From Actinomycetota bacterium (GTDB taxonomy: Bacteria > Actinomycetota > Acidimicrobiia > Acidimicrobiales > JAJPHE01), in contig JAJPHE010000010.1 of assembly GCA_021325435.1 (NCBI GenBank), positions 8,647 to 72,646 on the forward strand: 64,000 nt of DNA, given 5' to 3'. The position numbers and the translations under genes are program-made. The notes under the pieces were generated by a model, which made no database searches, was not told where the DNA came from, and worked only from the letters and a program-made list of their open reading frames with translations. Positions 480 through 60,067 of the stretch are shown here, one piece after another. Within the stretch, counting starts at the first letter, position 1. Every line of letters starts with the position of its first letter.

Positions 480-1709
480 ATGAGCACGGTCGAGGTGGCT
501 TTCAACCCGTTCGACCCGTCCTTCGGTCGCGACCCCTACCCTCAGTGGGCGGTCCTGCGCGACAACGACCCGGTCCATCAGACCCCCATCGGGTTCTGGC
601 TGCTCCTTCGCTACGACGACATCCACCGCTTCGTGCGCGACCCGGCTTTGAGCGTCGAGGAGCGCCACGCCAGCAACGCCCTCATCGACGCCATCATGGA
701 GCAGGCGCTGGGCGACCGTTACGCCGAGTTCCAGGACCGGGGCTCGAGGACGATGCTCAACCTCGACCCGCCCGATCACACCCGGCTGCGCCGGCTGGTC
801 AACAAGGCCTTCACCCCCCGGCGCATCGAGCAGCTCCGGCCCCGCATCCAACAGCTGGTCGACGAGGCCCTCGACCGGGTGGAGGCGGAAGGACGCCTGG
901 AGGTGATCGGCGACCTGGCCTTCCCCCTCCCGTTCGCCGTCATCAGCGAGATGCTCGGCATGCCCGACACCGACTCCGTGCAGCTGCGCGAGTGGTCAGG
1001 CACCCTGGTGCGGGGGCTGGAGCCCATCGTCGACCCCGAGCTGATCAACGCCATCGCCGACGCCGGCGACAACATGCGCAACCTGTGCTCGGAGGCCATC
1101 GCCTGGAAGCGGCAGAACCCGGCCGACGACCTGCTGACCGCCATGATCGCCGCCGAGGAGGCCGGCGACATGCTGACCGACGAGGAGCTCATCGAGCAGG
1201 TGATGCTGCTCTACATCGCCGGCCACGAGACCACCGTCAACCTGATCGGCAACGGCACCCTCGCCCTGCTGCGCAACCCGGACCAGCTGCGCCGGCTGGT
1301 GGAGGACCCCTCCCTCGACGTGAACGCCATCGAGGAGCTTCTCCGCTACGACCCGCCGGTGCAGATGACCCGGCGGATCACCCTCCAAGACGTCGAGGTG
1401 GGCGGCAAGACCATCGGGGCCGGCACCTTCGTGGCCTGCGTCATCGCCTCGGCCAACCGCGACCCGGCCCACTGGGGACCCGACGCCGACCGGCTCGACC
1501 TGTCGCGGCCGAACGCCAACCACCACCTGTCCTTCGGAGGGGGCGCCCACTACTGCCTGGGGGCGGCGCTGGCCCGGCTCGAGGCCCAGGTGGCCATCGG
1601 CACCCTGATCCGGCGCTTTCCCGGGCTCGAGCTGGCGGGGGAGCCGGAGTGGAACGGGCGGATGAACCTGCGGGGCAGAGCCAACGTGCCCGCGGTCTGG
1701 AGCAGCTGA
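480..1709 (+). CDS. Cytochrome P450
   Basis: AGHETT I-helix, EELLRYD (ExxR) and FGGGAHYCLG heme-ligand motif; SD GGGAGG upstream. Confidence 0.96.
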   Translation: MSTVEVAFNPFDPSFGRDPYPQWAVLRDNDPVHQTPIGFWLLLRYDDIHRFVRDPALSVEERHASNALIDAIMEQALGDRYAEFQDRGSRTMLNLDPPDHTRLRRLVNKAFTPRRIEQLRPRIQQLVDEALDRVEAEGRLEVIGDLAFPLPFAVISEMLGMPDTDSVQLREWSGTLVRGLEPIVDPELINAIADAGDNMRNLCSEAIAWKRQNPADDLLTAMIAAEEAGDMLTDEELIEQVMLLYIAGHETTVNLIGNGTLALLRNPDQLRRLVEDPSLDVNAIEELLRYDPPVQMTRRITLQDVEVGGKTIGAGTFVACVIASANRDPAHWGPDADRLDLSRPNANHHLSFGGGAHYCLGAALARLEAQVAIGTLIRRFPGLELAGEPEWNGRMNLRGRANVPAVWSS

Positions 1710-45864: not shown

Positions 45865-45946
45865 TCGCGTTCGTCAGGTCGTTGATCAACCTTGGTGGAC
45901 GCGCTTTTCGACCACTCCCCCGCCCCCTCCGATGGCGGATCCGCAT

Positions 45947-46243
45947 TCACGGCCGGTTGGCGAGCTCCAGGTCGGTCACCTCACCGTCGTCGGTGAACAC
46001 GGCCGTGAACCGGTGCTCGTCGCCGCCCGCCGACGGCCACGCCACCCCGGTCACCTCGTTTCCGTCCACGTCGTCCGACCGGACGACGACGCCTGCGCCC
46101 AGGCGGGCCTCCACGGCCGCCACCAGGTTGGCGAAGGCGTCAGCTCAGAGGTCTCATCAGAAGTGGTACCAGTGCCCGCCGATCTCCTCGTCGACGTCAC
46201 CCCACGTGGAGCCGCACAAGGCGCACGGTTGGCCCTTCGTCAC
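45947..46243 (-). CDS. Putative tri-selenocysteine protein with a TRASH/YHS-like (Ta0938-like) motif CxxC-x18-UUxxU, 98 aa
   Basis: GTG 46243 overlaps the upstream TGA with SD GGAGG; MTKGQPCALCGSTWGDVDEEIGGHWYHF-TGA-TGA-D-L-TGA-ADAFANLVAAVEARLG...ELANRP-TGA. In-frame TGAs are at 46159-57, 46156-54 and 46147-45. selAB are in the window. Confidence 0.82.
46102..46138 (-). promoter_or_regulatory. Candidate in-frame bacterial SECIS element(s)
   Basis: Two alternative hairpins just 3' of the TGAs: GCCUUC-GCCA-[ACCUGG]-UGGC-GGCCGU-GGAGGC and GGC-GGCC-[GUGGA]-GGCC-C-GCC. Confidence 0.5.
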
Positions 46244-46986
46244 CGGCGCTCACCTCCTTCGGCCTGCTCGGCGTCGATCCGGTTGGCCAGGCGCCAGACG
46301 GCGTCCATCATGCGGCGCAGGCGGGCCATCGACTCGGCCAGCACGGCGAGGATCTCGTCTTGGCGCTCCGGCGGGGTGTGGCGGGCGATGATCTCCACCG
46401 TCTCGTGGCCGTGGCCGGCGTCGGCCTGGTCGCTCACCTCGAAGAACTCGAGGCTGTCGTCGTCGATGCCGAGGGCCCGGGCGTAGGGCTCGGGGTCGAG
46501 CCCGGTGCCGGCGGACAGCCCGTAGGCGGCGGGCAGGTTGCGGTCGCCCAGGATCTCCAGGCCGTTGACGGCGGTAAACCCGACCAGCCAGTCCGGGTGG
46601 CGGGCCTGCTCCCACAGCCAATCGAAGGCGTCGGCCGCCTCGGGTAGGGGCGGGTGGGACTCGATCTCGGCCCGGGTGAGCCCGACGCTCTCACCGAGGC
46701 GCACCAGCAGCTGGTAGTGGTTGTCGTCGCCGGCGGGGTCGCGCACCACCTCGGACATGAGGTTCTCGACCTCGTAGGCGATGACGGAGAACTCGGGGCA
46801 GTTCGAGATGATCGACCCGACCCAACGCGGGAACAGCCGGGAGAACTTCGTCCACTGCAGCACGAAGGCGCGGATCACCCCGACGGTCGGCGCCGAGGCC
46901 ATGGCGGCGATGAGGGCGGGCGGGTGGCGGAACCAGCTGTCGACCACCAGCTGCTCGACCCGGGGGCCCATGGGGTTGTCGCTCAC
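46240..46986 (-). CDS. PqqC/CADD/TenA-like heme-oxygenase-like dimetal (HDO) protein
   Basis: GTG 46986 overlaps the upstream TGA; FPRWVGSIISNCP, ENLMSE...NHYQLL, NGLE and FFEVSDQADAGHG. Confidence 0.8.
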   Translation of the reverse strand: MSDNPMGPRVEQLVVDSWFRHPPALIAAMASAPTVGVIRAFVLQWTKFSRLFPRWVGSIISNCPEFSVIAYEVENLMSEVVRDPAGDDNHYQLLVRLGESVGLTRAEIESHPPLPEAADAFDWLWEQARHPDWLVGFTAVNGLEILGDRNLPAAYGLSAGTGLDPEPYARALGIDDDSLEFFEVSDQADAGHGHETVEIIARHTPPERQDEILAVLAESMARLRRMMDAVWRLANRIDAEQAEGGERR

Positions 46987-47195
46987 CGTCTCACCCGCTG
47001 GCTGCCCACAGTACGACCCGACAGCGCTCCGGCCAGCAGCGGCGCCAACTCCTCGGCGCTGACCCGGTGCTTGGTGACCCGCCGGTTGAGCCACATCACG
47101 TGGCGCCCGTCGCTGGCCTCGGCCCGCTCCACGAGATGGGCGGCCAGCGCCTCGAGGTCGGGCGCCGGCGCCGCGCACACCGGGCAGGCGTCCAT
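46983..47195 (-). other. C2H2-like zinc-finger module (70 aa), possibly also translated separately from ATG 47195
   Basis: CxxC-x12-H-x11-H; GGAG 9 nt upstream of the internal ATG. Confidence 0.65.
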
Positions 47196-54407: not shown

Positions 54408-54671
54408 CTACTCGGTGCTGTCCGCCCCGCAGGTGGGGCAGGGGCCTCCGGCGTGGATCTCCGAGCGGAGCAGGTTGGTGCCGGCCCCGTCGAGGGACAC
54501 CTCGAGCCGCCCGGTGTCGCGGTCGACGGTCACCTCGGCGTACGGGCGCCACTCGATGCTGCCCGTGGCCAGGGGCACCCCGCGGGGCACCCGGGCGAAC
54601 CGGCGCCGGCCGGTGTCGAACGCCCACGTGGTGGTGCAGGATTCGGCGAGAAGGAGGTCGGTGGTCGTCAT
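54408..54671 (-). CDS. Small hypothetical protein with C-terminal H-x4-CxxC
   Basis: 87-aa ORF with typical codon use. Confidence 0.6.
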   Translation of the reverse strand: MTTTDLLLAESCTTTWAFDTGRRRFARVPRGVPLATGSIEWRPYAEVTVDRDTGRLEVSLDGAGTNLLRSEIHAGGPCPTCGADSTE

Positions 54672-54738
54672 AGCGGTTTCTCTGAGCTACCCGGATCCTG
54701 GCAGACCTAACAGGGCAGAGTCGAGGAGAATTGACGCC

Positions 54739-55416
54739 GTGCCGGCACGGATCCTGATCGTGGAGGACGACGAGCGGATCCGGGCTTCCACCCGCCTGGC
54801 CCTCGAGGACGAGGGCTACGACGTCGACGAGGCGGGGACGGCCGAGGAGGCCCTCACCGCCTTCGGCCCCCACGACGTGGTGCTGGTCGACCTCATGCTG
54901 CCCGGGGCCGACGGCTTCGAGCTGTGCCGCCTCCTGCGGCGCGAGAGCGGCGTGCCCATCGTCATGGTGACGGCCCGTTCCGACACCCACGACGTGGTCG
55001 CCGGCCTCGAGGCCGGCGCCGACGACTACGTGACCAAGCCGTTCGTGGTGAAGGAGCTGTCGGCCCGCATCCGGGCCTTGCTGCGTCGGGCCCGGGCCGG
55101 CGGAGCAGGGCCGGCCACCGCCCTGACCTTCGGCAACCTCGAGATCCGCCCCGACGCCGGCGAGGTCCGCCTCGACGGGCGGACGGTGCACCTGACCCGC
55201 ACCGAGTTCCACCTGCTGTGCGAGCTGGCCGAGAACGCCGGCAAGGTCCTGTCCCGCGAGCAGCTGCTCGAGCGGGTGTGGGGCTACGGGTACTTCGGCG
55301 ACGCCCGGCTGGTGGACGTGCACGTCCGGCGGCTGCGGACCAAGGTGGAGCGCGACCCGGCGGCTCCCACCCACGTCGTGACCGTCCGGGGCCTCGGCTA
55401 CAAGCTGGCCCCGTGA
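54739..55416 (+). CDS. OmpR-family response regulator (CseB/MtrA-like)
   Basis: GTG at 54739; VEDD, DLMLPG, GADDYVTKPF and VDVHVRRLRTK. Confidence 0.95.
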   Translation: MPARILIVEDDERIRASTRLALEDEGYDVDEAGTAEEALTAFGPHDVVLVDLMLPGADGFELCRLLRRESGVPIVMVTARSDTHDVVAGLEAGADDYVTKPFVVKELSARIRALLRRARAGGAGPATALTFGNLEIRPDAGEVRLDGRTVHLTRTEFHLLCELAENAGKVLSREQLLERVWGYGYFGDARLVDVHVRRLRTKVERDPAAPTHVVTVRGLGYKLAP

Positions 55417-56804
55417 GGCGGCGTCTGGGCCTGCGGGCCCGGATCACCCTCAGCTTCGCCCTCGGCGCCTTCGGCCTGTCGGTCGTGCTGTCGCTCCTCA
55501 CCTACGGGCTGACCCGCCGGTCGGTGGTCCACAGCCGCCAGAACTCGGCCCTCCACCAGACGCTGGCCAACGCCTTGGTGATGAGGGACGCCCTCCGCTC
55601 GGCCAGCCCGAACGTGCCGACCGTGCTGTCGTCGCTGGAGACCCCGTCGGGCTCGGACTCGGTGCTGCACCACCGGGGGGCGTGGTTCGCCACCAGCCTG
55701 GCCGTGGGCCGCCAGGCCATACCGGCCGCCCTCATCCGCCGGGTGGTCGACCAGGGCCAGGCCGCCACCCAGCAGTTCGTGCTCGGCGGCCACCCGGAGT
55801 TCGCCGTCGGCGTGCCGCTGCCGGCCGTGGACGCCCAGTACTTCGAGCTGTTCGACCTGGAGGACGTGGCCCGCACCCTCAACGCCCTCGGCATCTCGCT
55901 GGCCGCCGCCGCCGCCGCCACCACCCTGGCCGGGCTGGCGGTGGGCCGCTGGGCCAGCCGCCGGGTGCTCTACCCCCTGACCGAGACGGCCCGGGTGGCC
56001 GCCCTCATCGCCGGCGGGGAGCTGGAGACCAGGCTGCAGGCCGGCGACGACACCGACCTGGCCGCCCTGGCCTCGTCGTTCAACTCGATGGTCACCGCCC
56101 TGCAGCGGCGCATCCAGCGCGACGCCCGCTTCGCCTCCGACGTGAGCCACGAGCTGCGCTCCCCGCTCACCACCCTCACCGCCGCCGTCGAGGTTCTCGA
56201 GCGCCGCCGCCACGAGCTGCCGGAGCGCTCGGCCCGGGCCCTCGACCTGCTGGCCGCCGAGGTCCACCGCTTCGAGCGGCTGGTCGGGGATCTGCTGGAG
56301 GTGTCGCGCTTCGACGCCGGGGTGGCCGACCTCGCCCTCGAGGACGTCCGCCCCGTCGAGCTGGTCCGCAACACCCTCAGCCTCGAAGGGGTGTCCGGGG
56401 TGGCGGTCGAGGTCGAGCCGGGCGCCGACCGGGTCATCCGGGCCGACAAGCGCCGGCTCGAGCGGGTGCTGGCCAACCTGTTGGCCAACGCCGAGATCCA
56501 CGGGGGCGGGGCGGTCCGGGTGGCGGTGTGCCGCACCGAGTCGGGGGTCCGCCTGGCGGTGGACGACGCCGGCCCCGGGGTGCCCCCCGAGCAGTCCGAG
56601 TCGGTCTTCGAGCGCTTCGCCCGGGGGGCCGCCGCCGGGAACCGCTCGCGGGGCGACGGGGTGGGGCTCGGGCTGTCGATCGCGGCCGAGCACGTGCGGC
56701 TGCACGGCGGCCTGATCGGGGTGGGGTCGAGCCCGGAGGGCGGGGCCCGCTTCTGGGTGGACCTTCCCGCCCAGGCCCGGGAGACGGCCGGCGGGCGGGT
56801 GTGA
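55413..56804 (+). CDS. Sensor histidine kinase with HAMP domain (CseC/MtrB-like)
   Basis: GTGA overlap; two TM segments, DVSHELRSPL, NLLANA, DDAGPG and GLGL. Confidence 0.95.
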   Translation: MRRRLGLRARITLSFALGAFGLSVVLSLLTYGLTRRSVVHSRQNSALHQTLANALVMRDALRSASPNVPTVLSSLETPSGSDSVLHHRGAWFATSLAVGRQAIPAALIRRVVDQGQAATQQFVLGGHPEFAVGVPLPAVDAQYFELFDLEDVARTLNALGISLAAAAAATTLAGLAVGRWASRRVLYPLTETARVAALIAGGELETRLQAGDDTDLAALASSFNSMVTALQRRIQRDARFASDVSHELRSPLTTLTAAVEVLERRRHELPERSARALDLLAAEVHRFERLVGDLLEVSRFDAGVADLALEDVRPVELVRNTLSLEGVSGVAVEVEPGADRVIRADKRRLERVLANLLANAEIHGGGAVRVAVCRTESGVRLAVDDAGPGVPPEQSESVFERFARGAAAGNRSRGDGVGLGLSIAAEHVRLHGGLIGVGSSPEGGARFWVDLPAQARETAGGRV

Positions 56805-57035
56805 CGGGCGGGCGGACCGGGGTGCCGAGGCCTGCCCCGGGGACTCGGCGATGGCCCCCGAGGCAGTCGCCCCCCGGGTGGCGAGCGGCGGCACGCCTAC
56901 CCGGGCCTCGGCCCGTGCCGCATCGCGCCCGGCGAGAAGCGCAGTGACGGCTCCCACCATGCTGGCCTTCGGATACGACGATGCGACCGCAAACGTGTAT
57001 CGATTTCGTGACAATGTTCGGGCGGTGAGCGAACG

Positions 57036-58325
57036 GTGAGGCCCCCCTCCGTCGACGCCGTGGCCCGGTCCCTGTCCGACCTGGGGCTCCCCCACCCCCT
57101 GCTGGTCGACGCCGCCCGCGAGGCGATCGCCGCCGGCGACCCGGACTCGGCCCGCCAGCGGGCGACGATGGTGGCCCGGGCCCTGCTCCGACCGGTGATC
57201 AACGCCACCGGCGTGCTGCTCCACACCAACCTGGGGAGGGCCCCGCTCGAGGTCCACCATCCCGCCCGCTACACCAACCTCGAGCTGGACCTGGCCACCG
57301 GCCGGCGGGGATCGCGCAGCGCCCATGCCGCCGCCCTCCTGGCCCGGGCGGCGGGGGCGGAGGCGGCCCTGGTCGTCAACAACGGCGCCGGCGCCGTGCT
57401 CCTGGCCCTGGCCGCCCTGGCCGCCGGGCGCTCGGTCGTGGTCAGCCGGGGCGAGCTGGTCGAGATCGGCGGCGGGTTCCGCATCCCGGAGGTGATGGCC
57501 GGATCCGGCGCCCGCCTGGTGGAGGTGGGCACCACCAACCGGACCCGCCTCGGGGACTACCGGGCCGCCCTCGACGACGACGTGGCCGTGGTGCTCAAGG
57601 TGCACCAGTCCAACTACCGCATCGTCGGGTTCACCGAGGACGTGGGGCTGGCCGCCCTGGCCGGGCTGGGCCCGCCCGTCGTCTACGACATCGGATCCGG
57701 GCTGCTCGACGAGGCCACCCCCTGGCTGACCGGCGGACCGCCCCGCTGGCTGGCCGGGGAGCCGGCCGCCCGCCAGTCGCTCGAGCGGGGGGCGGCGCTG
57801 GTCACCTTCTCCGGGGACAAGCTGCTGGGCGGCCCCCAGGCCGGCGTCATCGCCGGCCGCTCCGACCTGGTCGCCGCCTGCGCCCGCCACCCGCTGGCCC
57901 GGGCCCTGCGCCCCGGCCCCCTGGTGCTGGCCGCCCTGCAGGAGACCGCCCTCGCCTACCTCGACCGCCGGGGCGAGGACATCCCGTTCTGGCGGATGGC
58001 CACCACCCCGCCGGCCGAGCTGCGCCGCCGGGCCGAGCGTCTGGCCGCCGCCGTGCCCGGCGGCGAGGTGGTGGACTGCGCGTCGACCCCCGGGGGCGGA
58101 TCGCTTCCGGGCCTCGAGATCCCGTCGGTGGGGGTGGCCCTGGCCGGCGACCACGCCGCCGCCCTGCGCCAGGCCCCGGTGCCGGTCATCGCCCGGGTGT
58201 CCGACGGGCGCACCGTCGCCGACCTGCGGGCCGTGGACCCGGCCGACGACGCTGCCCTGGGCCAGGCCCTGGCCGCCGCGGCAGCCCACGGCAGGGGCAG
58301 CGGCGACAGCGGCAGCGCCGGCTAG
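57036..58325 (+). CDS. selA: L-seryl-tRNA(Sec) selenium transferase
   Basis: VINATGVLLHTNLGRAP, VVNNGAGA, SRGELVEIGGGFRIP, EVGTTN and FSGDKLLGGPQAG (PLP Lys). Confidence 0.96.
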   Translation: MRPPSVDAVARSLSDLGLPHPLLVDAAREAIAAGDPDSARQRATMVARALLRPVINATGVLLHTNLGRAPLEVHHPARYTNLELDLATGRRGSRSAHAAALLARAAGAEAALVVNNGAGAVLLALAALAAGRSVVVSRGELVEIGGGFRIPEVMAGSGARLVEVGTTNRTRLGDYRAALDDDVAVVLKVHQSNYRIVGFTEDVGLAALAGLGPPVVYDIGSGLLDEATPWLTGGPPRWLAGEPAARQSLERGAALVTFSGDKLLGGPQAGVIAGRSDLVAACARHPLARALRPGPLVLAALQETALAYLDRRGEDIPFWRMATTPPAELRRRAERLAAAVPGGEVVDCASTPGGGSLPGLEIPSVGVALAGDHAAALRQAPVPVIARVSDGRTVADLRAVDPADDAALGQALAAAAAHGRGSGDSGSAG

Positions 58326-58330
58326 GCCCA

Positions 58331-60067
58331 GTGCACGTCGTCGCCACCGCCGGCCACGTCGACCACGGCAAGTCGACGCTGGTGCTGGCCCTCACCGGCA
58401 CCGACCCCGACCGCTTCGCCGAGGAGAAGGCCCGGGGCCTCACCATCGACCTCGGCTTCGCCTGGATGGCCCTGCCCTCGGGGGCCGAGCTGGCCTTTGT
58501 GGACGTCCCCGGCCACGTCCGGTTCATCAAGAACATGCTGGCCGGGGTGGGGGCGGTCGACGCCTGCGTCTTCGTCGTGGCCGCCACCGAGGGCTGGAAG
58601 CCTCAGTCCGAGGAGCACCTCCGCATCCTCGAGCTGCTCGGGGTCACCCACGGGCTGGTCGCCCTCACCAAGGTGGGGCTGGTCGACGAGGAATGGGAGG
58701 CGTTGGCCCGCATGGAGGTGGCCGACCACCTGGCCGGCACCTTCCTCGAGGACGCCGACGTCGTCGGGGTCGACGCCGTGGCCGGGCGGGGGGTCGGGGA
58801 GCTGGTCGCCGCCCTCGACCGGCTGGTCGGCTCCACCCCCACGTCGGCCGACCGGGGCCGGCCCCGGCTGTGGGTCGACCGGGCCTTCGCCGCCCGGGGG
58901 GCGGGGACGGTGGTGACCGGCACCCTGGCCGGCGGCCAGCTCGCCGTCGACGACGAGGTCGAGCTGGTCCCCGCCCCGGGGCGGTCGCCGCTGCGGGTCC
59001 GGGCCCTCCAGTCCCACGGCCGGCCCCGCGACCGGGTCGGCCCCGGCCACCGGGTGGCGGTGAACGTGGCCGGGGTGTCCCACGACCGGGTGGGGCGGGG
59101 CCAGGCCCTCGTCCGCCCGGGCCAGTGGGCGCCCACCAGCGTGTTCGACGCCTCCCTCGCCGTCCTGGCCGGGCTGGACCACGACGTCAGCCGGCGGGGC
59201 GCCTACCACGCCTACCTCGGCTCGGGCGAGCACCCCGCCCGTATCCGCCTGCTGGGGCCGGAGTCCATCCCCCCCGGCGGCGCCGGCCTGGTGCGGGTCC
59301 ACCTGCCCACGGCCCTGCCCCTGCTGCCCGGCGACCGCTACGTGCTGCGCGAGTCCGGCCGGGCCGAGACCGTCGGAGGCGGGGAGATCCTCGACGTGGC
59401 CCCGGTGCTGCCGGCGGCCCGGGCCCGTCCCGACCGCTCGGTCGACCGGGTGGTGGCCGAGCGGGGCTGGGTGGACGCCGGACTATTGGAGCGGCTGACC
59501 GGCGAGGCCCGGGCCCCCGACGTCGGGCGGTGGGTGGTGGCCCCGGCCGCCCTGGCCGAGACGGTCGGGACGGTGCGCCGGGCGGTGGCCGAAGCCGGGC
59601 CGCTGGGGCTGGACGTGGCCTCGCTCACCGACCGGCAGCGGGCCGTCCTCGACCGCCTGGACGACGTGGTCGTCGACGCCGGGCGGGCCCGGCCGTCAGC
59701 GGCGGCGGACGCCTCGGCCCAGCTGGGGTCCCACCCCTACGTGGCCGCCCTCGAGGCGGCGCCGTTCACCCCACCCCCGCCCGACGGGGTGGACCGGGCC
59801 GAGCTCTCCCAGCTGGTGCGGCGGGGCCTGGTCGTGGAGCGCGACGGCTGCTACTTCGCCCCGGCGGCGGTGGACGCCGCCGGCCGGCGCATCGCCGCCC
59901 TCCTCGTGGACCGGCCCGACGGGGTGACGGTGGCCGAGGTGCGCGACGCCCTGGGCACGACCCGCAAGTACCTGCTGCCGCTGCTGGCCCACCTCGACGC
60001 CACCGGCGTCACCCGACGGCGCGGCGACCTGCGGGTCGGGGGGCCACGGCTGCCGCAACCCGCCTGA
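58331..60067 (+). CDS. selB: Selenocysteine-specific elongation factor
   Basis: AGHVDHGKST, EEKARGLTIDLGF, DVPGHVRFIKNML and C-terminal winged helix RDALGTTRKY..PLL..LD. Confidence 0.96.
   Translation: MHVVATAGHVDHGKSTLVLALTGTDPDRFAEEKARGLTIDLGFAWMALPSGAELAFVDVPGHVRFIKNMLAGVGAVDACVFVVAATEGWKPQSEEHLRILELLGVTHGLVALTKVGLVDEEWEALARMEVADHLAGTFLEDADVVGVDAVAGRGVGELVAALDRLVGSTPTSADRGRPRLWVDRAFAARGAGTVVTGTLAGGQLAVDDEVELVPAPGRSPLRVRALQSHGRPRDRVGPGHRVAVNVAGVSHDRVGRGQALVRPGQWAPTSVFDASLAVLAGLDHDVSRRGAYHAYLGSGEHPARIRLLGPESIPPGGAGLVRVHLPTALPLLPGDRYVLRESGRAETVGGGEILDVAPVLPAARARPDRSVDRVVAERGWVDAGLLERLTGEARAPDVGRWVVAPAALAETVGTVRRAVAEAGPLGLDVASLTDRQRAVLDRLDDVVVDAGRARPSAAADASAQLGSHPYVAALEAAPFTPPPPDGVDRAELSQLVRRGLVVERDGCYFAPAAVDAAGRRIAALLVDRPDGVTVAEVRDALGTTRKYLLPLLAHLDATGVTRRRGDLRVGGPRLPQPA

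Follow-up and report, generated by a model that had tools for sequence, protein, structure and literature searches.

A Candidate Two-Part, In-Frame Selenocysteine Insertion Element Behind Three Clustered UGA Codons in an Acidimicrobiial Metal-Binding Protein Gene

Results

A Gene with Three In-Frame UGA Codons

The DNA analysed here, referred to as the window, is a stretch of 64,000 nucleotides from a bacterium of the Acidimicrobiales (assembly GCA_021325435.1, contig JAJPHE010000010.1, positions 8,647 to 72,646). Its minus strand carries a short gene in which a cluster of three in-frame UGA codons is followed by two adjoining, translated stem-loops (SL1 and SL2), which together are put forward as a candidate selenocysteine insertion sequence (SECIS) element. 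The features concerned are as follows.

45947–46243, minus strand: tri-UGA gene, encoding a Ta0938/TRASH-type zinc-ribbon protein of 98 residues with the pattern C-x2-C ... U-U-D-L-U (U, residue encoded by UGA)
46145–46159, minus strand: UGA cluster, comprising UGA1 (46159–46157), UGA2 (46156–46154) and UGA3 (46147–46145), which correspond to residues 29, 30 and 33
46088–46141, minus strand: SL1, a long stem-loop of 54 nt taken from the RNAalifold consensus, whose base is conserved and whose top varies
46069–46088, minus strand: SL2 (hairpin C), a candidate SelB-binding SECIS hairpin, CGUCGUCC-[GGUC]-GGACGACG, with its loop at 46080–46077

The gene starts at a GTG codon (46243), which is preceded by GGAGG and overlaps the stop codon of an upstream haem-oxygenase-like gene, and its frame ends with the TGA at 45949–45947, provided that the three in-frame TGAs are read through. 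The read-through product matched the Pfam family PF11494 (Ta0938) with an E-value of 4.7e-17 and a score of 62.6 bits (cut-off 27), the match spanning residues 6–92 and model positions 3–89 of 92, which by sequence makes it a full-length member of that family. A match to the Ta0938 structure (PDB 2FQH, E 8e-10) and weaker matches to the TRASH and YHS profiles were also obtained. In the motif of the product, C-A-L-C ... H-W-Y-H-F-U-U-D-L-U-A-D-A-F, the ligand pattern of PF11494 (C-x2-C ... C-C-x2-C) is kept, its positions being occupied by either cysteine or UGA. The protein therefore shares its ligand motif with Ta0938 and the TRASH/YHS modules, but differs from them in that the second cysteine cluster is here encoded by two or three UGAs.

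Scans of genome and metagenome collections yielded 23 distinct bacterial orthologues (55–78% protein identity), the present gene included, which came from Acidimicrobiia or Actinomycetes metagenome-assembled genomes or from soil and freshwater contigs. All 23 have the same layout and could be aligned without gaps over 135 columns. The UGA cluster aligns with the Cys-Cys-x-x-Cys of archaeal homologues (F-F-C-C-x-x-C-A), in which cysteine is found at all three positions. Every internal stop in the orthologues was TGA (62 of 62, with no TAA or TAG); the terminal stops of the same 23 genes were TGA in 16, TAG in 4 and TAA in 3. Positions 2 and 3 of the cluster were TGA throughout, while position 1 was TGA in 16 genes and TGC or TGT in the other 7. 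Coding conservation was seen on both sides of the UGAs, so that the gene combines the two properties by which selenoprotein genes are recognised, namely a UGA aligned with cysteine and coding conservation to either side of it. Judged from sequence comparison, the three UGAs are selenocysteine (Sec) codons in a small metal-binding protein, on account of the cysteines of the homologues, the exclusive use of TGA among the internal stops, the alternation of cysteine codons and UGA at position 1, the full-length Ta0938 match, and the presence of selA and selB genes in the window (see below).

Two side observations concern the cluster itself. Of the 14 orthologues with alanine directly after UGA3 (46144–46142), 10 use the codon GCT, which is seldom found elsewhere in these genes (4 of 125 alanine codons outside the element); this preference suggests that the nucleotides behind the third UGA are constrained. 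In one metagenomic contig (OFHJ01008013.1, approximately positions 960–1100), an orthologue reading ...YHFC*HL* was found, after which similarity was lost (PGSVSKPS...); this copy looks frameshifted or decayed, or may contain a sequencing error.

Two Adjoining Stem-Loops Are Conserved Behind the UGA Cluster

The RNAalifold consensus of the 23-sequence alignment consists of SL1 and SL2. SL1 starts 3 nt past UGA3 and reaches as far as the foot of SL2, leaving no linker between the two. Its base is formed by GACGCCU-U-CGCC (46141–46130) pairing with GGGC-G-CAGGCGUC (46099–46088), giving a basal helix of 6 + 4 bp to which individual folds add one foot pair, and it encloses 30 nt coding for a variable stretch of the protein. 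Minimum-energy folding recovered SL1 in almost every orthologue, the upper stem differing in sequence and slightly in register. Conservation of pairing was measured as the percentage of paired alignment cells, in comparison with shuffled columns or with partners slid by 1–3 columns. SL1 and SL2 together were paired in 92.3% of cells, as against 25–60% with slid partners, and the basal helices of SL1 by themselves in 93.5%. Pair probabilities were obtained for each sequence by a partition-function calculation over the segment extending from UGA1 to +100 nt, and averaged 0.81 for SL1 and 0.89 for SL2.

The stability of the folded region was compared with dinucleotide shuffles for this genome, and with synonymous recodings using the family codon usage for each orthologue. 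All 23 natural SL1+SL2 sequences were more stable than their own recodings, with a mean z of −2.85, and SL1 alone gave a mean z of −2.06 over the 23 orthologues. Against dinucleotide shuffles, z was −3.22 for SL1 and SL2 of this genome together, −2.43 for SL1 and −2.19 for SL2, whose energy was −13.2 kcal/mol. The archaeal homologues with cysteine codons showed no consistent excess over their synonymous recodings (mean z = −0.25); as a control this comparison is weak, since one pooled codon table was applied to sequences ranging in G+C content from 33 to 65%. The arms of the SL1 base had reduced synonymous diversity (GCC in 20/23 and 18/18, GGC in 18/19), and covariation within it was limited to one compensatory change from C-G to G-C and one pair occurring in G-U, G-C and A-U forms.

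SL2 was conserved to a degree that extended to every synonymous site of its core. Its stem has 7–8 bp here and at least 5 bp in 23/23 orthologues, and its 4-nt loop was GGUC in all 23. No synonymous variation at all was found in the core, GTC CGG TCG GAC GAC, and the codons for V-V-R-S-D-D were, in order, GTC in 20/20, GTC in 23/23, CGG in 23/23, TCG in 23/23, GAC in 22/22 and GAC in 23/23 cases. Outside the element, the same genes used GTC for 52%, CGG for 30% and TCG for 45% of the respective residues, and their other Val, Arg, Ser, Gly and Ala columns had codon entropies of 0.6–1.9 bits. The five core pairs of SL2 held in 23/23 sequences, the sole change among them being from U-A to a U-G wobble.

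The bSECISearch model of bacterial SECIS elements (Zhang and Gladyshev 2005, via PMC13188914) has a stem of 4–16 bp, a distance of 16–37 nt between UGA and loop, and a loop with G in its first two positions, usually followed by G or U. When candidate hairpins were required to have a loop of 3–9 nt, a stem of at least 4 bp, a G among the first two loop bases and an energy of at most −7.5 kcal/mol, SL2 was the sole hairpin to pass at a conserved position, doing so in 22/23 orthologues. Hairpins that complied with these rules at 16–37 nt were found in 0, 1 and 3 of the 23 orthologues for UGA1, UGA2 and UGA3, respectively.

Apart from SL2, no hairpin in the 64-kb window combined a GGUC loop with a stem longer than 5 bp. 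In a wider search of 527 kb, comprising the window and the other loci with both strands counted, 24 of 26 GGUC hairpins of at least 7 bp were copies of SL2, that is, those of the orthologues, of their duplicate loci, and of one relative without UGAs (L005, discussed below). The one other long GGUC hairpin, GGCCCGGC-GGUC-GUCGGGCC with 8 bp, was present in metagenomic locus L003 (approximately positions 1665–1684, minus strand), in the intergenic region between a methyltransferase gene ending in TAA and a HEM4 gene; it was dismissed as a SECIS and regarded as unrelated, since it follows a TAA stop with no in-frame UGA before it. There was no SECIS-like hairpin with a GGUC loop ahead of selA, and no in-frame TGA followed by a GGUC hairpin 14–32 nt later in the window or the loci scanned. 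The possibility that SL2 is an inverted-repeat protein-binding site on DNA was rejected as the principal explanation on two grounds: SL1 next to it shows selection for stability of the RNA, and the substitutions seen in the stem are G-U wobbles.

Hairpins A and B Are Not Conserved

A first-pass annotation of the same DNA had proposed two other, SECIS-like hairpins behind the UGA cluster, both of which lie within the SL1 region.

46107–46138, minus strand: hairpin A, GCCUUC-GCCA-[ACCUGG]-UGGC-GGCCGU-GGAGGC, present in this genome but neither conserved nor populated
46102–46121, minus strand: hairpin B, GGC-GGCC-[GUGGA]-GGCC-C-GCC, the variable SL1 top of this genome

The two hairpins were found in the sequence as they had been drawn, with every claimed pair a standard one, and they are indeed mutually exclusive, since they overlap. 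Their loops start 28, 25 and 16 nt (A) and 42, 39 and 30 nt (B) after UGA1, UGA2 and UGA3, in agreement with the distances given, and the loop-G rule was likewise reported correctly for this genome, being broken by A (ACCUGG) and obeyed by B (GUGGA). It was in this genome only, however, that A and B satisfied the rules for loop size and stem length. Folded alone and compared with dinucleotide shuffles, they gave z values of −0.57 and −1.60, and the 86-nt stretch around them gave −0.81, none of which is better than chance.

The suggestion that A and B act as SECIS elements did not survive comparison among the 23 orthologues, where neither was kept beyond the level of shuffles. Hairpin A was paired in 60.4% of cells (shuffle mean 60.2%) and B in 42.2% (shuffle mean 42.2%). 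The ensemble pair probability of A was 0.00 here, as it was in each of the other 22 orthologues, and its pair at columns 42/51 was broken in 17/23 sequences because a valine codon changes from GTG to GTC or GTT without compensation. Hairpin B had an ensemble probability of 0.59 here (0.96 for its top 3 bp) and appeared in the minimum-energy fold of this genome, but its probability was approximately zero in the other 22. There was therefore no sign of the refolding switch that had been postulated between the two, A never being populated and B being only the local form of the variable SL1 top. The broader idea that several UGAs share one non-standard element fared better, although the element named was the wrong one: SL2, to which the evidence points instead, lies outside the segment then considered.

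Spacing and Modelled Geometry of the Element

The SL2 loop begins 76, 73 and 64 nt after UGA1, UGA2 and UGA3, distances that are identical in 23/23 orthologues, and the foot of its stem lies 59–71 nt from the UGAs. When SL1 is modelled as folded, a single base pair would separate the foot of SL2 from a site in the mRNA that lies 15, 12 and 3 nt past UGA1, UGA2 and UGA3, respectively. For UGA1 and UGA2, this modelled geometry would be close to the 11-nt spacing of E. coli and to the span of approximately 13 nt from the A site to the hairpin loop in a model of the SelB–ribosome complex (PMC4605307). Ribosome occupancy was modelled in a simple way by keeping 13 nt, counted from the A-site codon, single-stranded. 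Under this constraint, the SL1 base was predicted to persist in 22/23 and SL2 in 23/23 orthologues with the ribosome at UGA1 or UGA2. With the ribosome at UGA3, only the foot of SL1 was predicted to open, SL2 persisting in 22/23.

Selenocysteine Machinery and Neighbouring Genes

Two genes for selenocysteine incorporation are encoded approximately 11 kb from the tri-UGA gene.

57036–58325, plus strand: selA, L-seryl-tRNA(Sec) selenium transferase (TIGR00474, 417.9 bits, cut-off 267.9)
58331–60067, plus strand: selB, Sec-specific elongation factor (TIGR00475, 288.9 bits, cut-off 242.25)

The C-terminal SECIS-binding winged helix of SelB was recognised as PF09107 (SelB-wing_3) at residues 531–569, with an E-value of 1.5e-15. 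The equivalog model covered only residues 3–356 of the protein (model positions 2–338 of 581), the C-terminal half being diverged except for this last winged helix, so that the linker and winged helices 1–3 may differ from those of well-studied SelB proteins; this divergence could affect reach and geometry. In many actinobacteria, selA and selB are preceded by selC or selD. Here, within 54415–60067, the genes ahead of selA and selB encode a response regulator and a histidine kinase, and neither selD nor selC was found beside selA, whose neighbours are this two-component system and a hydrolase. No tRNA of any type was predicted across the 64-kb window. A search for a second selenoprotein gene, in which all TGAs of the window were scanned for coding potential, gave only ordinary gene ends.

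The tri-UGA gene is the last of three genes on the minus strand (45947–47195) that are chained through GTGA start/stop overlaps, the other two being as follows.

46983–47195, minus strand: zf-C2H2_9/DUF5810 finger gene, upstream of the tri-UGA gene
between the finger gene and the tri-UGA gene, minus strand: gene for a haem-oxygenase-like enzyme (Haem_oxygenas_2/TenA-fold)

The same order of three genes was found in metagenomic loci L001 and L003, with the addition of a divergent methyltransferase gene upstream. Public protein sets hold only the C-terminal 54–60 residues of the tri-UGA protein family, and NCBIfam release 20 contained no model matching it. A literature search found no paper linking selenocysteine with the TRASH domain. 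Among the 119 prokaryotic selenoprotein families of a 2026 inventory, there is no Ta0938, TRASH or PF11494 family, two-Sec entries are few, and the lone three-Sec entry is a fusion protein (PMC13188914).

Discussion

On the basis of the distances obtained with SL1 folded and of the occupancy model, it is proposed that SelB would recognise SL2 through its C-terminal winged helix, with SL1 acting as a folded spacer between SL2 and the UGA cluster. Folding of SL1 would place SL2 beside the mRNA entrance of a ribosome standing at UGA1 or UGA2. A ribosome that had advanced to UGA3 would open the foot of SL1 only, leaving SL2 intact and tethered nearby. Because the spacer would hold SL2 at the entrance, the signal would not be melted before the third UGA is read, and a single SelB-binding hairpin could serve three UGAs spread over 15 nt without melting itself. 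We lean towards this two-part, in-frame element, in which SL2 binds SelB, SL1 brings SL2 to the UGA cluster and one element suffices for three codons, as the reading somewhat favoured by the evidence. The wider claim, that the gene represents a distance-acting, in-frame bacterial SECIS serving three Sec in a five-codon stretch, two of them side by side, in a protein whose family current inventories do not list, is advanced more tentatively, as one that may well be right but on which we stop a little short of leaning.

The closest likeness to SL2 is found in the SECIS of formate dehydrogenase H mRNA. As read from the genome of E. coli K-12 (NC_000913.3), the fdhF element has the form UGA-N18-[GGUC] within GGUUGCA-GGUC-UGCACC, and G23 and U24 of its loop are required for SelB binding (PMC8659212). 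SL2 is likewise an in-frame hairpin behind a Sec UGA, with the same GGUC tetraloop and an upper stem of comparable length. It lacks the bulged U of the fdhF 5′ arm, however, and whereas the fdhF hairpin serves one UGA and lies 11 nt from it (loop at 18 nt), SL2 would serve three, with its loop 64–76 nt away behind a 54-nt stem-loop. In the Moorella thermoacetica fdhA SECIS, known from SelB winged-helix co-crystals, C-G closing pairs are followed by a loop beginning with GGUC, which resembles the CC-GGUC-GG of SL2, with canonical spacing and a single UGA; a literature search for the sequence of that element found nothing. In terms of the bSECISearch model, SL2 conforms to the rules for loop, stem, G[G/U] start and energy but not to that for the distance between UGA and loop. 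The action of one distant SECIS on several UGAs has its likeness in eukaryotic selenoprotein P and in the 3′-untranslated-region SECIS of archaea, but those elements are untranslated, have a kink-turn or GAA_A core and work with SBP2/eEFSec or aSelB, while SL2 is in frame and would work with a classical bacterial SelB.

Several observations weigh against the proposal. The spacing of 64–76 nt lies well outside the 16–37 nt of the bSECIS rule, and in E. coli, the binding hairpin must lie 11 nt from the UGA (PMC8659212). Neither selC (tRNA-Sec) nor selD was found within the 64-kb window. A search of the whole window with Rfam at gathering score returned no SECIS family and no tRNA-Sec, and neither was returned at the relaxed thresholds used for 52–64 kb (E up to 1) and for 45940–46260 (E up to 10), where only chance matches to the L31 leader and sR41 appeared. 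True covariation was scarce, the covariation score being matched by 16 of 500 shuffles, and the case therefore rests on conservation, the freezing of synonymous sites and stability rather than on compensatory change. The arms of the SL1 base and the whole of SL2 encode conserved residues (DAFA, G-x-G-V and VVRSDD), so that part of the conservation may act on the protein. Finally, the relative L005 (positions 139–378 of a 500-nt contig, GCA_040960765.1) consists of the C-terminal domain only and lacks the CxxC, the zinc ribbon, the UGA cluster and the left arm of the SL1 base, yet retains SL2 unchanged at the nucleotide level (GGCGTCGTCGTCCGGTCGGACGACGTCGAC). This could reflect a recent truncation, an assembly fragment, or a role of SL2 beyond Sec decoding.

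The last of these possibilities leads to the alternative that SL1 and SL2 are maintained for reasons unconnected with SelB, for example as a pausing or read-through structure like the eukaryotic Sec redefinition element, as an mRNA-stability element, or through a protein constraint on VVRSDD with inherited codons, SelB being brought in by a route not apparent from the sequences. A stable helix so close to a recoded stop (3 nt past it) is a usual trait of elements that stimulate read-through or frameshifting, and SL1 starts at precisely this distance from UGA3; the residues encoded by SL2 are themselves invariant, and its nucleotides are retained in L005 where there are no UGAs to decode. Protein constraint alone, however, would not freeze six consecutive synonymous sites in genes whose codons vary elsewhere, and the GGUC loop recurs unaltered in an RNA that SelB is known to bind. 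Moreover, the SelB of this genome keeps its SECIS-binding wing and so needs some hairpin as a ligand, for which no other conserved candidate was found. A role of this kind is therefore considered rather unlikely. A similarly low, and marginally lower, likelihood is assigned to SL1 itself being the SECIS, with SelB reading its apical hairpin (B in this genome) 30–42 nt after the UGAs in a sequence-tolerant manner and SL2 being kept for another purpose. In its favour, SL1 begins right behind the UGAs as a classical bacterial SECIS does, its stability is under selection even when it is considered alone (mean z = −2.06), and its apical loop here starts with G (GUGGA). The apical loops nevertheless vary in sequence, size and register among the orthologues, and most tops have no G in the first two loop bases (AUCGAG, CCUG, ACCUGA, ACCUCCG and CCACCUGA are examples). 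Model-compliant hairpins at 16–37 nt occur in no more than 3/23 orthologues, and the freezing of SL2 at every synonymous site would be left unexplained.

That the UGAs are not Sec codons at all, but mark a decayed or split gene or are read by a near-cognate tRNA, would fit with the lack of selC and selD in the window and with public gene calls that list only the C-terminal 54–60 residues. It is hard to reconcile with stops that are exclusively TGA at cysteine positions in 23 diverged orthologues, one of them alternating with cysteine codons, with coding conservation that runs on both sides, and with intact selA and selB genes 11 kb away, and we regard it as very improbable. Least credible of all is the switch between hairpins A and B, by which one stretch would serve UGA1 and UGA2 in one SECIS fold and then UGA3 in the other. 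Both folds can be drawn in this genome at the distances claimed, but A has no measurable probability anywhere (0.00), neither hairpin is paired more often than shuffled columns, and synonymous changes without compensation break pair 42/51 of A in 17/23 sequences.

On the prevailing view, Sec insertion in bacteria requires each UGA to have a SelB-binding hairpin at a short and constant distance. As a consequence of this assumption, predictors scan only 16–37 nt, and engineered selenoproteins are limited in their sequence and in the number of Sec residues that they can contain. Some selenoprotein genes do not conform to the bSECIS model and may hold other classes of SECIS (PMC13188914). If the proposed reading of SL1 and SL2 is true, it would constitute a new class of bacterial SECIS geometry, one that is missed by current predictors and that would account for some of the genes lacking a canonical SECIS. 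It would explain how the ribosome can decode clustered UGAs and yet leave the signal it depends on unmelted, and would offer a design by which the residues beside Sec could be freed from RNA constraints in recombinant selenoprotein production. The cluster itself would be, to our knowledge, the densest natural bacterial Sec cluster, and the findings lend support to the existence of a new family of tri-Sec metal-binding proteins in the Acidimicrobiia.

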